A stretch of DNA of 64,000 bases from Escherichia phage vB_EcoM-fFiEco06 (NC_054914.1); one strand, 5' to 3'. Numbered from the stretch's first letter, positions 29,642 to 37,604 are shown. Program-made: numbers and translations. Notes: generated by a model from the letters alone, not told the origin.

Positions 29642-29855
29642 ATTTGACTTCCTCACCAGTACATAAATCGTATTCAACTAAACGAATAGGTTCATGAATG
29701 CCATATCCCTGAACAGAAATTTCTGTCGTAGGATAAATTCCACTAATATCACCCATATTCCACGCTTCATTAAATTGATGTTCGCCTGAATTACTAAACC
29801 ATTCTGCGAAAGCATTTAACACATCTTTAGAACCTTCAATAATTATCTTTGCCAT
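29634..29855 (-). CDS. Hypothetical small protein (vs.5 position)
   Basis: 73 aa. Confidence 0.4.
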   Translation of the reverse strand: MAKIIIEGSKDVLNAFAEWFSNSGEHQFNEAWNMGDISGIYPTTEISVQGYGIHEPIRLVEYDLCTGEEVKYD

Positions 29856-30217
29856 TACAAGCTCTCAGTAAAGGTACGAGCGATAACGTCGCGCTGCTGT
29901 TCCGGAGTCAGAGAGTTAAAGCGAACTGCATAACCGGATACACGGATGGTCAGCTGCGGATATTTTTCCGGATGCTTAACTGCATCTTCCAGAGTTTCAC
30001 GACGCAGAACGTTAACGTTCAGGTGTTGACCACCTTCAATTTTAACTGTAGGCTGTGTCTCAATTTCAATTTCACGGGCATGCAAACCATAGAAAATTTC
30101 TGGGTCTACAAAAGAGTCCTCTTTAAAGGTTTTAGAGACAATAATTCGTGCTTGAATACCATCTTCAAAATAAATAGTACCTTTATGTGTGCCTTCAAGA
30201 ATTTGATATGCTTTCAT
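29855..30217 (-). CDS. Autonomous glycyl radical cofactor (GrcA/YfiD-like)
   Basis: 120 aa; C-terminal glycyl-radical motif [29 protein letters not shown]; the 3' half is about 50% GC. Confidence 0.8.
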
Positions 30218-30223
30218 ATAACC

Positions 30224-30604
30224 TCAATTAGAAAATAAATTTATCCAAGATTGTTCTTTAATTAAAAATGGCTCAGAATCATATGCCATTAAACTCTGTG
30301 TGATTAGTCCTTTAAAAGGCCCATCAATAAATTCCATGGTAAAATATGGAATTTTATTCATTAGCCGTGCATTAGGAGCCGTGCACAAAACTCTGCATCC
30401 TTTGAATACGCCTTTTTGTAATTTGTATTGCTTGGGATAAAATTCGCTCAAAATGTTATTTTTTGCCAAAATTTCAAAATGATTCACCAATTTATTTTTA
30501 ATAGTTTTTGGCGAAAAATAAAGATATTCGAAAAGCTGAGTGTCTGTCATCATTGCATTCCGATTACGAAAAACTGTGGACGAGTAATACCACCAATGCA
30601 ACAT
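30224..30604 (-). CDS. Hypothetical protein (vs.7 position)
   Basis: 126 aa. Confidence 0.4.
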   Translation of the reverse strand: MLHWWYYSSTVFRNRNAMMTDTQLFEYLYFSPKTIKNKLVNHFEILAKNNILSEFYPKQYKLQKGVFKGCRVLCTAPNARLMNKIPYFTMEFIDGPFKGLITQSLMAYDSEPFLIKEQSWINLFSN

Positions 30605-31137
30605 TTAATATTACAGCAGCAGTGTACAGTGTCAATATGGACACTATAAATCTTATCCATATCAGGAGATTTGACAGGCTCATCAATTATATACAAAATT
30701 CGCGAAAGCGATAAACCTCTGAACTTGCTTCCTTTATTACCAATAAAACTGCGTACAGAATCAGTAAATAAACGAAAACGTATATCATCATTAGAATAAC
30801 GTGAAAATTCCTTTTTAATGTTATTTGCAGAAATTTTAGCGTAAGCTGAAGTATTAGAAAGAACAATAACTGTTCCGCCATCATACAACCAATTAGCAGC
30901 AAAGTTAGTCACAGCAATTGATTTACCAGATTGACGTCCACCGTCTAGTCGAAGTGTGCAATACTGTTTAAGTAAGTCTTCAAATGGCGGGATATATTCG
31001 TTTTTACAAATTTCTTCTACTCTAGCATCAGAATGGTGTGTAAAAGCATTCATCAGGGATAGATAAGGACCAGTTAAAAATGTTCTCATTTTGTTCTCTC
31101 TAGGTTTGGGCCATTCCATGGCGCATGAATTGTCCAT
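30550..31137 (-). CDS. Small P-loop NTPase (vs.8 position)
   Basis: Walker A GGRQSGKS and Walker B-like ILYIIDEP; the true start may be Met17 near 31089. Confidence 0.5.
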   Translation of the reverse strand: MDNSCAMEWPKPRENKMRTFLTGPYLSLMNAFTHHSDARVEEICKNEYIPPFEDLLKQYCTLRLDGGRQSGKSIAVTNFAANWLYDGGTVIVLSNTSAYAKISANNIKKEFSRYSNDDIRFRLFTDSVRSFIGNKGSKFRGLSLSRILYIIDEPVKSPDMDKIYSVHIDTVHCCCNIKCCIGGITRPQFFVIGMQ

Positions 31138-31234
31138 TTCTGTATTTACCCATTACCGCACTTGGGCTCGACCTTATTACAGGTTGGCGGGAATCCCTCA
31201 CAGAATCATGAGGTCCAGGTTATTCCCATGTTAT

Positions 31235-31651
31235 TTAAATGTAAATATTTTTGCCGTAATACTTATACCAGTGTGGCTTCATTAAAATTTTTTCATCGAG
31301 TCGTTGTTGACTCAACTTAATAGCTGATTTACATGGATTATAATCATTTTTCCATTCTACTGGAATATCGCTGATGTCAGGAACTTCAGTATCTTTTATA
31401 CTGAACCCGCGTTTTAAGCATTCCGTTATAATGTCCGATTGACGCTTTCGCAAAAATTCTAACTTATCGTAAAAGAAAGTAACATGACCAGAACCTAAAA
31501 TAAATTTAGAAGATATTTTAAAATCTTTAACGCGCTTACCGTTTGCCACATGCTTACGAACTATACCAAAAACACGCGGCAATTCACGGTATTCTGCGAT
31601 TAAATGTTGATCAGCAAGTTCAGATACTAAAGTCAAATTAATACGAGTCAT
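31235..31651 (-). CDS. denV: Endonuclease V (pyrimidine dimer DNA glycosylase)
   Basis: 138 aa; [17 protein letters not shown]...[10 protein letters not shown]. Confidence 0.92.
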
Positions 31652-31673
31652 TTTATCCCTCCAAGTAACTGTG

Positions 31674-31706
31674 AATATACTATCACAATTCTAGGAGAAA
31701 GTAAAC
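31674..31706 (-). promoter_or_regulatory. T4-type early promoter upstream of denV
   Basis: Minus strand GTTTACTTTCTCCTAGAATTGTGATAGTATATT. Confidence 0.55.
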
Positions 31707-31710
31707 AACT

Positions 31711-32241
<531 letters not shown>

Positions 32242-32697
32242 TTAAAAGAGGCTGTTCATTATTCGGTAAAGTGAAGGACCCATCACATATTGCCACTGAG
32301 TACGAGGAATAAGAGCAAAAGCATCCATCTCTGGAATCATAACGCCATCTTTATTTTCAAAATAAGACTCGCAATGGCAATTTCTAAACATCTCATGCTC
32401 TACTGGAATCGTATAATAAAATAACTGTAAGTCTTTATTACTAGAATATTTAAATACACCTAAGTCTTCTAGAAGGTCTGGATTATAATCGATAAAACCA
32501 GTCTCTTCTGAGCATTCTCTTTTTGCAGCTTCCAGTGCATTCAAATCAGAACTTTCTACACGCCCCTTTGGAATATCCCAGCGATGTGCAATCATTCCAG
32601 GTTTACGAGAACCGGTAACTCGTCCCATAAATAAATCTTTATCTTCTGTCATAAAGATAATACCAGCTGATAATGTTTTCATTTTAATTTCCTGCAT
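32242..32697 (-). CDS. nudE: Nudix hydrolase
   Basis: 151 aa; Nudix box GRVESSDLNALEAAKRECSEETGF. Confidence 0.8.
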   Translation of the reverse strand: MQEIKMKTLSAGIIFMTEDKDLFMGRVTGSRKPGMIAHRWDIPKGRVESSDLNALEAAKRECSEETGFIDYNPDLLEDLGVFKYSSNKDLQLFYYTIPVEHEMFRNCHCESYFENKDGVMIPEMDAFALIPRTQWQYVMGPSLYRIMNSLF

Positions 32698-36430: not shown

Positions 36431-36460
36431 CTAAAAAGCCCCAACCTTTCGGTCGGGGCT
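36431..36460 (-). terminator. Rho-independent terminator (copy 2) ending the tRNA/stable-RNA transcription unit
   Basis: AGCCCCGACC-GAAAG-GUUGGGGCU followed by UUUUUAG; about 30 nt shared with copy 1. Confidence 0.7.
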
Positions 36461-36776
36461 AAGCCTTGCGGCAACCTTGTCGGGGTTCCACCTGCTAAGG
36501 CAAGTGTTTGTACGAAACGCCGGGATTCGAACCCGGTTATTAAGCAGTTGACGCTACTCAATATTTTTAAAAGGCCATATCTCGACCATATCCGAACGTT
36601 CCGTCAAAAACGCTACTCGGCTTACGGCAAAGATATTTCCTCGAATCGATAATTCGGTGCGCCGTTTCTGCTGTGATATAAGGGGACATTAACAAAACAT
36701 AAAGATTTATTAATACCAGTCCTTAAACAGGGAACATCAGTCCGACGACTTGCCGGTAGCGACCCGGCTTCTTGTC
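36461..36776 (-). ncRNA. Stable RNA region (T4 species 1/2, rnaC/rnaD-like)
   Basis: Non-coding stretch between tRNA-Arg and the terminator, containing a tRNA-like T-arm (GGGTTCGAATCCCGG); position as for the T4 stable RNAs. Confidence 0.4.
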
Positions 36777-36852
36777 TGGTCGAGGCAGTAGGGATCGAAC
36801 CTACGACCCAGGACTTAGAAGGTCCTTGCTCTTCCTTCTGAGCTATGCCTCG
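36777..36852 (-). tRNA. tRNA-Arg (anticodon UCU)
   Basis: Hand-folded cloverleaf: acceptor CGAGGCA/UGCCUCG, anticodon loop CUUCUAA, T-arm GGTTCGATCC, encoded CCA. Confidence 0.8.
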
Positions 36853-36856
36853 TATT

Positions 36857-36931
36857 TGGCGGACGTGATAGGATTCGAACCTATAACCAATCGCTTAACA
36901 GGCGATCGCTCTGCCATTGAGCTACACATCC
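36857..36931 (-). tRNA. tRNA-Asn (anticodon GUU)
   Basis: Acceptor GGATGTG/CACGTCC, anticodon stem ATCGC/GCGAT with loop CTGTTAA, T-loop TTCGAAT, CCA. Confidence 0.7.
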
Positions 36932-36935
36932 AAAT

Positions 36936-37022
36936 TGGTGGGGAGTGGTGGAGTCGAACCACCCGAGTCGCAATGACAATGAATTTACAGTCCACACCGC
37001 TACCTCTACGGGATAACTCCCC
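36936..37022 (-). tRNA. tRNA-Tyr (anticodon GUA), long variable arm
   Basis: 87 nt; acceptor GGGGAGT/ACTCCCC, anticodon loop CTGTAAA, T-arm GGTGGTTCGACTCCACC, CCA. Confidence 0.65.
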
Positions 37023-37031
37023 AAATTAATT

Positions 37032-37106
37032 TGGTGGCCCTGGGTGGAATTGAACCACCATCTGGCGATTATGAGTCGCTTGCTTGAACCTTCCAGCTAC
37101 AGGGCC
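37032..37106 (-). tRNA. tRNA-Ile/Met (anticodon CAU)
   Basis: Acceptor GGCCCTG/CAGGGCC, anticodon loop CTCATAA, CCA. Confidence 0.75.
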
Positions 37107-37107
37107 T

Positions 37108-37183
37108 TGGTGCTGATTGACGGAATCGAACCGCCGACCTTCTCATTACAAGTGAGTTGCTCTACCTACTGAGCTAAATCAGC
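37108..37183 (-). tRNA. tRNA-Thr (anticodon UGU)
   Basis: Acceptor GCTGATT/AATCAGC, anticodon loop CTTGTAA, T-arm GGTTCGATTCC, CCA. Confidence 0.8.
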
Positions 37184-37188
37184 AAAAC

Positions 37189-37278
37189 TGGCGGAGGCGA
37201 TAGGATTTGAACCTATGAGTCGCCGGAGCGACTGCCGGTTTTCAAGACCGGTGCATTAAACCACTCTGCCACGCCTCC
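37189..37278 (-). tRNA. tRNA-Ser (anticodon UGA), long variable arm
   Basis: 90 nt; acceptor GGAGGCG/CGCCTCC, anticodon loop CTTGAAA. Confidence 0.8.
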
Positions 37279-37280
37279 AG

Positions 37281-37354
37281 TCTCCGTGGCAGGATTTGAA
37301 CCTACGACATTCTGCTCCCAAAGCAGACGCTCTACCAAACTGAGCTACACGGAG
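37281..37354 (-). tRNA. tRNA-Pro (anticodon UGG), CCA not encoded
   Basis: Acceptor CTCCGTG/CACGGAG, anticodon loop TTTGGGA; separated from tRNA-Ser by 2 nt. Confidence 0.8.
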
Positions 37355-37364
37355 TAAATTAAAT

Positions 37365-37438
<74 letters not shown>

Positions 37439-37443
37439 AAATT

Positions 37444-37530
37444 TGGTGCGAGAAGTGGGACTCGAACCCACAAGGAAATCATTCCGCAGCATTTTAAGTG
37501 CTGTGCCTTTACCAATTTGGCCATTCTCGC
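37444..37530 (-). tRNA. tRNA-Leu (anticodon UAA), long variable arm
   Basis: 87 nt; matches T4 tRNA-Leu as recalled (GCGAGAATGGTCAAATTGG...). Confidence 0.85.
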
Positions 37531-37531
37531 G

Positions 37532-37604
37532 CTGGGAATAAAGGACTCGAACCTTTGCATCCTGGAATCAAAATCCAGTGCCTTACCAACTTGGCTAATT
37601 CCCA
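37532..37604 (-). tRNA. tRNA-Gln (anticodon UUG), CCA not encoded
   Basis: TGGGAATTAGCCAAGTTGGTAAGGCACTGGATTTTGATTCCAGG...; abuts tRNA-Leu with a 1-nt spacer. Confidence 0.85.

Follow-up and report, generated by a model that had tools for sequence, protein, structure and literature searches.

The window, by which we mean the whole 64-kb stretch of DNA analysed, is Tequatrovirus (T4-like) DNA, identical to Escherichia phage vB_EcoM-fHoEco02 at every position of the 1.2 kb compared. Along its minus strand a nudE-like gene, the lysozyme gene e and denV are followed by a GC-rich interval and then by a small P-loop gene. denV encodes a pyrimidine dimer DNA glycosylase (31235..31651, minus strand; PF03013, phrog_1183) and the downstream gene a vs.8-like protein of 179 aa (30550..31089, minus strand; phrog_1488), both as named by the original prediction, which had placed a nested stem-loop between denV and a small P-loop NTPase gene. 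The phrog_1488 protein carries a Walker-A-like motif, GGRQSGKS, recognised by eye, and belongs to a family without an assigned function. Between the two genes lies the subject of this report, an RNA element of ~120 nt which in its T4-like form spans 31108..31227 on the minus strand, as delimited by sequence, GC content, conservation and structure; all coordinates given below for the element refer to that strand. The denV stop codon stands 8 nt ahead of its first stem, P1.

The interval had been singled out as an island of roughly 50% GC, a value slightly high for the span concerned (31138-31234), which has 46.4% against 35.1% for the window; it is an island nonetheless, at the 97th percentile among 97-nt windows. 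The full element, at 50.0%, reaches the 99th percentile among 120-nt windows, with higher values in the window confined to the region of the tRNA cluster and a few further places. Elsewhere on the same strand, a 120-aa open reading frame at 29855-30217, with a local GC content of 0.51, was noted by eye as a candidate GrcA/YfiD-like autonomous glycyl-radical cofactor.

An N-terminal extension of the downstream reading frame, which the original prediction had kept as its simpler alternative, is ruled out. An ATG at 31137 is in frame with the P-loop gene in this window; in T4 the frame opened by the same upstream ATG does not match that of MRTF and meets a stop ahead of it, and the phrog_1488 profile, over its positions 2-177, begins its alignment at residue 3 of the protein that starts MRTF at the ATG at 31089. 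To judge from this frame break and profile start, the translation start is 31089 and the in-frame ATG at 31137 is an accident. An intrinsic terminator for denV was likewise rejected: P1 is followed by GCCAACCUG, with no U-tract, and no terminator-like site is predicted on the minus strand in 30000-32500. ARAGORN finds 10 tRNAs in the window at 36777-37604 (minus strand) and none at 31100-31230, nor in the corresponding elements of relatives.

A T4-type early promoter-like sequence stands ahead of denV at 31671-31706 on the minus strand (GTTTAC, 18 nt, TGaTAGTAT; by eye), and where a Klebsiella phage has no denV at the corresponding place, the same sequence directly precedes the element (locus L034, ~360-395; loci of relatives are numbered in this way throughout), which suggests that the RNA may be expressed early. 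Across the Tevenvirinae the element sits between variable denV or internal-protein genes and the vs.8-like gene; the gap offers no room for a promoter of its own, so the element is presumably part of an early transcript, and in this phage it would be transcribed with the early denV - vs.8 message.

Architecture and covariation of the element

The original prediction had recognised a nested inverted repeat at 31189-31227 on the minus strand and proposed a structured RNA element on that transcript. Direct reading of the sequence shows its coordinates to be exact, comparison with relatives gave positive results for conservation and covariation, and the proposal is thereby borne out, with some amendments: the hairpin is merely stem P1 of a larger, pseudoknotted three-way-junction RNA; the RNA continues ~30 nt beyond the 3' boundary originally drawn, to ~31108; and the best-conserved part is not the hairpin, the core at 31141-31193 being more conserved. 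This core (31141..31193) is matched by a covariance model, R1, at 67.5 bits (E = 6e-21).

The P1 domain (31189..31227), visible in the sequence and present in the predicted minimum-free-energy fold, comprises an outer helix P1a (GGGAAU at 31227-31222 with AUUCCC at 31194-31189), a 5' internal loop AACCUGGA (31221-31214) and an inner helix P1b (CCUCA at 31213-31209 with UGAGG at 31200-31196) closed by a loop at 31208-31201. The 5' strand of P2, GCCA (31185..31188; pairs 9-42, 8-44 and 7-45 of our core alignment, A1), leads into P3, or hairpin A (31171..31184; ACCU-GUAAUA-AGGU), which has a GNRA-like loop and the family consensus N-CCU / GUNNNA / AGG-N'. Junction J3/4, CGA (31168..31170; C-(N)-A in the family consensus of alignment A1), separates it from P4, or hairpin B (31158..31167; GCC-CAA-G(U)GC), whose stem is replaced among relatives by GUC/GAC, GGC/GCC, GUA/UAC or GCG/UGC. 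Junction J4/2, GGUAA (31153..31157), occurs in every copy collected, the search patterns having required it. The 3' strand of P2, U(G)GGU (31148..31152), has a bulged purine, G31151, after its first pair, and a bulge of this kind recurs when the classes are compared by eye. An A/U-rich linker, UAAAUA, and the 3' strand of the pseudoknot, CAG (31142-31140), together occupy 31140..31147.

The pseudoknot joins the P1 5' internal loop to the stretch 3' of P2, past an A/U-rich linker of 0-8 nt, and in this phage consists of 3 bp only, CUG (31218-31216) with CAG (31142-31140). Beyond it, at 31110..31140, T4-like phages have a specific 3' extension of two hairpins followed by CC(C), recognised by sequence conservation: hairpin 1 at 31127-31140 with an AUGGAC loop, and hairpin 2 at 31110-31122 (GCCA-UGGAA-UGGC). 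Both keep their sequence among T4-likes, covary little if at all, and are absent from other classes; their loops contain GGA, and the extension ends at ~31108, ~20 nt ahead of the start codon. A CsrA-type role for these GGA loops was considered and set aside; in the other classes GGA lies within stems or is absent.

The predicted folding energy of the region does not distinguish it: the segment 31080-31250 (minus strand) has a minimum free energy of -32.2 kcal/mol and its shuffles average -34.0 (z = +0.5); it does no better than they do even though P1 appears in the fold. Folding energy alone therefore lends no support, and the case rests on comparative evidence. Alignment A1 contains 55 distinct core sequences, the same set from which R1 was built, and 90.1% of its paired cells are complementary against 74.8% in shuffles and 26-40% in controls whose 3' partners were slid by 1-3 columns; its covariation score of 0.404, compared with 0.113 in shuffles, was matched by none of 500 shuffles. 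The three inner pairs of P2 are unpaired in none of the 55 sequences and use three to five pair types each (AU 26, UA 16, CG 7, UG 5 and GC 1 for the first; CG 38, GC 7, UA 5, AU 4 and GU 1 for the second; CG 39, GC 10 and AU 6 for the third), while the closing pair of hairpin A (AU 51, GC 3, CG 1) and the middle pair of hairpin B (CG 40, UA 11, GC 2) also covary.

For P1 and the pseudoknot, counts were made column by column in an alignment of 17 full-length b-type T4-like sequences. One P1a pair covaries (GC 11, CG 3, AU 1), and the two variable pseudoknot pairs, never unpaired in the 17 sequences, are CG 12, AU 4 and GC 1, and GC 10, CG 5 and AU 2. Between classes, pseudoknot strands change together in the same register, as in GGGUA/UACCC vs GGGAG/CUCCC, ACCG/CGGU vs ACUG/CAGU, and CUCCGG/CCGGAG vs UUCCGG/CCGGAA; an automated comparison of own with mismatched partners over windows of 14 x 16 nt was noisy and separated the two weakly, with mean helix scores of 4.15 and 3.83, respectively. 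A P1a helix of differing sequence was present in every class inspected: GGGAAU/AUUCCC in this window, AAAGG/CCUUU or AAAGC/GCUUU in other T4-likes, GGGG/CCCC in rV5, AGCGC/GCGCU in L073, and GAGGG/CCCUC in phage Ivi against GCGGG/CCCGC in its relatives. G-U pairs are seen solely when the element is read on the minus strand, which fixes the strand and favours RNA over DNA.

The homologues were collected with sequence patterns that fix many core positions, so that the invariance of CCUGU, AAGG and CGGUAA is partly circular. A divergent second copy in L144, whose hairpin A reads ACCA-GUAA-UGGU, suggests a GNRA-type loop in that hairpin and, on the evidence of this one sequence, the pattern-based collection overstates how invariant the core is. 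From conservation and covariation together, we consider it almost certain that the element is a conserved structured RNA.

No known family accounts for it. The 4227 models of Rfam 15, which cover riboswitches, hammerhead, twister, twister-sister, pistol, hatchet, HDV-like, tRNA, tmRNA, 6S and abiF RNAs, give no match to 31090-31240 at E up to 10 and none over the element at gathering score in a search of the window; the relatives' elements were equally without matches in 15 loci at gathering score and in 16 loci at E up to 5. HDV-like, hammerhead and twister folds were rejected by inspection on topology, and the 2-3 nt between hairpins A and B leave no room for the P1 3' strand of an HDV-type ribozyme. 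Three segments, GCGGUAAU (530 loop), GUAACAAGGU and GGUUUAAUUC, are presumably short identities with universal 16S rRNA; mimicry of 16S rRNA was rejected, as the flanking positions vary among relatives and the identities are probably chance. To judge by these comparisons the element belongs to an uncurated phage RNA family outside all Rfam 15 families. Literature searches by sequence and by keyword found no published description of it, although a catalogue of 10,006 viral candidate RNAs (PMC10690425) may include it.

Distribution among phages

A 151-nt region around the element matches 1,117 phage records by blastn, including distant Tevenvirinae of Klebsiella, Enterobacter, Citrobacter and Erwinia. 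Matches restricted to 32-45 nt of the core extend to rV5-like members of Vequintavirus, a Phapecoctavirus and a few 45-kb Kagunaviruses such as Ivi, all of them without other DNA similarity to the query; among the Kagunaviruses the distribution is patchy, some members having the element and others not. Degenerate core patterns added 76 loci from IMG/VR and 65 from metagenomes, with environmental copies from TARA ocean, soil, gut and wastewater samples and one on a 359-kb jumbo-phage contig.

True copies score 48-72 bits with R1; chance pattern matches, which are partial and fall within coding regions, score at most 24 bits. When 185,579 species genomes of bacteria and archaea were scanned twice with patterns, the scans yielded 0 and 5 matches; all five were chance matches of at most 24 bits, leaving no true copy in those genomes, and blastn against 5,426 E. 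coli genomes gave no match. The single plasmid-collection match, CP057073.1, is a 137.5-kb non-mobilizable E. coli 'plasmid' with an rV5-type core only, and looks like a mislabelled rV5-like phage genome. Records labelled Campylobacter among the matches are UNVERIFIED Vequintavirus genomes, for example MG065677.1 (L035, 'Campylobacter phage A13b'), which also looks mislabelled. Within the reach of the pattern and blastn searches, the family occurs solely in virulent phages and viral contigs.

With its filters off, R1 finds a single copy in the 64-kb window, the next best score being 9.9 bits, and hence no second copy beside the tRNA cluster; on this basis a paralogue of the stable RNAs of the tRNA region was rejected. 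Tandem copies, 85-115 nt apart, do occur in Karamvirus-like phages and in one environmental class (L058/L100); the loci are L017 (5089-5252), L021 (9019-9183), L032, L156, L058 (828-965) and L100 (2106-2243). In the second of the Karamvirus copies P1b is shortened, and hairpin B reads GCC-CGC-GGC or GUC-CGC-GAC.

A separate observation concerns rV5-like phages, in which a repeated motif, GAGUUCCCCUUAGAGGGCUUGAUAGUG, flanks the element (L001, ~1425-1455; both sides in L014 and L079). In its opening 9 nt and in its hairpin shape the motif resembles what we take to be the E. coli type I-E CRISPR repeat, a likeness that may be coincidence or a repeat mimic.

Genomic settings and candidate functions

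In the interpretation that we tentatively favour, with somewhat less than even confidence, the element would work in trans, as an autonomous and stable RNA with a binding partner. The junction is held against P1 by the pseudoknot that joins the P1 internal loop to the stretch 3' of P2, and junction and pseudoknot together would form a pocket or surface for a conserved partner, be it a host protein, a host RNA or a small molecule; the module might be released or simply stable. This proposal derives from arrangements in which the element lies in tRNA arrays or is flanked by terminators or by long stems, and it has to be weighed against four others.

tRNAs are present in 26 of 35 loci, in all cases on the element's strand and in 25 within ~1.1 kb. 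The element lies between tRNA-Thr and tRNA-Gly in phiWec188 and starts a few nucleotides after a tRNA in L073 (distance given as 46 nt), a tRNA begins 27 nt past the core in L043, and the core follows a tRNA by 53 nt in the jumbo-phage contig L038. Such repeated proximity, the constant placement on the transcribed strand, and a compact, pseudoknotted multi-helix fold with invariant unpaired nucleotides would suit a new small self-cleaving or otherwise catalytic RNA, one that processes polycistronic and tRNA-array transcripts and in which the junction strands and pseudoknot form a putative active site; a preprint (bioRxiv 10.1101/2023.06.13.544163) describes HDV-like 'theta' ribozymes in phage tRNA arrays, which resemble the element in having a compact pseudoknotted fold in that setting and on the transcribed strand. 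Against a ribozyme, the spacing to tRNAs is inconstant, ranging from 27 nt to over 1 kb, with 5.6 kb in this window; no candidate cleavage site emerged that is conserved; none of the known ribozyme models in Rfam was matched, with E allowed up to 5-10; and phage tRNA transcripts are already processed by host RNase P and RNase E. We regard a catalytic role in processing as unlikely.

A different setting prevails in the T4-like phages. A phrog_1488 homologue follows the element directly in almost every Tevenvirinae genome examined, and among T4-likes element and gene have nearly the same distribution (~1,000 records each); homologues of the vs.8 protein are confined to these same Tevenvirinae, more distant T4-likes not being reached through the protein. 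The element could on these grounds be a cis-acting leader, a riboswitch or protein-binding operator controlling translation or stability of the vs.8-like gene, with the GGA-looped 3' hairpins just upstream of the start codon as part of it, and by eye the GGG of the P2 3' strand could alternatively pair with the element's 3' CCC as a possible switch. Like riboswitch aptamers, the element measures ~60-120 nt and combines a multi-helix junction and invariant unpaired nucleotides with a long-range pseudoknot and occasional tandem copies. Unlike them, it has no Rfam riboswitch match, no consistent downstream gene and no expression platform shared across classes, consistent 5' UTR placement with such a platform being absent outside the Tevenvirinae, and it often stands alone or has a terminator or promoter after it.

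The core occurs without phrog_1488 in rV5-like, Phapecoctavirus, Kagunavirus and environmental phages, and another gene follows it in L018, L044 and L102. Elsewhere it lies upstream of promoters, between tRNAs or before terminators: in rV5 it lies within a gap of 344 nt that precedes the annotated sigma-70 promoter P74, ~570 nt before the tRNA array, and is therefore not a 5' UTR of P74's gene; in Ivi, by comparison with other Kagunaviruses, it is inserted sequence, with a terminator before it and a near-consensus promoter, TTGACA-N17-GATACT, after it. The 3' hairpins lack covariation, the P2 3' strand of the L016 class is unable to pair with the 3' CCC, and control of the vs.8-like gene as the element's function seems to us doubtful, a shade more so than catalysis.

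The tRNA arrays raise a further alternative at the level of transcription, that the element is a put-like RNA for processive antitermination or protects untranslated tRNA-array transcripts from Rho. It lies within or ahead of long untranslated tRNA arrays, and is counted as standing ahead of terminators in L037, L073 and Ivi. In Phapecoctavirus-like tRNA arrays it is bracketed by repeats of the form AGUGCUCUU(U/A)NCGUUGUG, found at ~2001 and 2212 in L019 and also in L062, L033, L115, L129, L009 and L012, at -63 and +115 to +150 from the core; these contain UGCUCUU(U/A), which we take to resemble boxA. The downstream complement of the repeat, AAGAGCAYU, might form a long enclosing stem, at which Nus factors, RNase III or both could act. 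The boxA-like motifs are, however, limited to this one class, a promoter intervenes between element and downstream genes in rV5-like phages and Ivi, and to our knowledge the element bears no resemblance to the two-hairpin architecture of put, all of which makes a role of this kind very improbable. Ordinary sequence, whether a coding extension, a denV terminator or a chance GC-rich hairpin, has the in-frame ATG at 31137 and the indifferent folding energy in its favour, but given the broken frame in T4, the family profile that begins at MRTF, the missing U-tract and terminator, and conservation across phage families with compensatory changes, it can be dismissed with hardly any reservation.

Action in trans by a stable RNA module remains our tentative preference, and some of the evidence counts against it as well: adjacency to the vs.8-like gene and the 3' extension in Tevenvirinae suit a cis-regulator, the invariant junction nucleotides and pseudoknot fit a ribozyme active site equally well, and the pseudoknot in this phage has just 3 bp. 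The settings in which the element appears as a separate unit are found in other phages only. In the Phapecoctavirus-like class long complementary flanks enclose it, which we infer to be an excision stem, and in L037 and L073 a terminator follows it. When the open reading frames within 4 kb on either side were clustered for 29 loci, no protein family was shared by at least three classes.

A role in host takeover or anti-defence is plausible, given this lack of a conserved adjacent protein partner and a distribution that looks accessory, with insertion in Ivi, a place in the hyperplastic region of T4-likes and abiF motifs nearby. Copies of the abiF RNA motif (RF03085), at 45 bits against a gathering score of 37, occur in the tRNA arrays of environmental contigs that carry the element: L046 (3624-3655, minus strand), L109 (140-171, plus strand) and L110 (1417-1448, minus strand), with a weaker copy in L122 (541-614). 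abiF RNA is otherwise linked to an abortive-infection gene, and the phage-borne copies could be anti-defence decoys. Phages are known to carry RNA decoys of host defence RNAs, among them pseudo-ToxI and RNA anti-CRISPRs; like these and the abiF motif, the element is accessory, patchy and in need of no adjacent phage protein, and in one class it shares its tRNA arrays with abiF RNA. Unlike such decoys, it forms no repeat array and has no host counterpart in the 185,579-genome pattern scans or the E. coli blastn search, and those searches yielded no bacterial homologue beside a toxin or defence gene.

Resemblance to known phage RNAs and significance

The closest parallel within T4 itself is provided by its stable RNAs C and D, the species 1 and 2 RNAs of the tRNA region, which are small, GC-rich, phage-encoded RNAs associated with the tRNA cluster, conserved in T-even phages and orphan in function. 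The element is likewise a small, GC-rich, phage-encoded orphan associated with tRNAs; it differs in lying 5.6 kb from the T4-like tRNAs, inside an early mRNA, and in reaching far beyond the T-even phages. As a side observation, the highest GC peaks of the window (0.57; 36438-36560 and 36730) lie at or just downstream of the tRNA cluster, and the one near 36438, which has neither a tRNA nor an Rfam match, probably corresponds to RNAs C and D, which we assume are not in Rfam 15. Another parallel is the pRNA of phi29, a phage-encoded RNA of ~120 nt with a three-way junction. The element shares those three features and has no relation to pRNA in sequence or gene context, occurring instead in early-gene and tRNA regions; we know of no use of RNA by the packaging motors of T4-like or rV5-like phages.

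In kind, the element is thus an orphan structured phage RNA. Its nearest likenesses are riboswitch aptamers, the small ribozymes of phage tRNA arrays and the orphan stable RNAs encoded in the tRNA region of T4, and it departs from each of them in the features by which that kind can be tested. That it represents a new functional class, either a self-cleaving or other catalytic fold or a decoy or sponge in which RNA alone, without protein, captures a host factor, a component of defence or a signalling molecule, and that it has spread horizontally among unrelated virulent phages, is a conjecture towards which we do not lean, though we take it seriously; if true, such an RNA would have travelled in tRNA arrays among phages that range over T4, rV5, marine phages and jumbo phages.

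T4 is among the best-studied of phages, yet it harbours in this intergenic stretch an RNA whose support from covariation is on a par with that for curated ribozymes and riboswitches. Over 1,000 sequenced phages carry the RNA, many being candidates for therapy, and so do marine, soil and gut viromes; it offers a handle on the role of the non-tRNA stable RNAs in phage tRNA regions. Its small size, the clear compensatory designs available in P2, hairpin B and the pseudoknot, and the tractability of its phages make its function directly testable. That phage families with almost nothing else in common have conserved its fold points to a target or a chemistry both shared and important.
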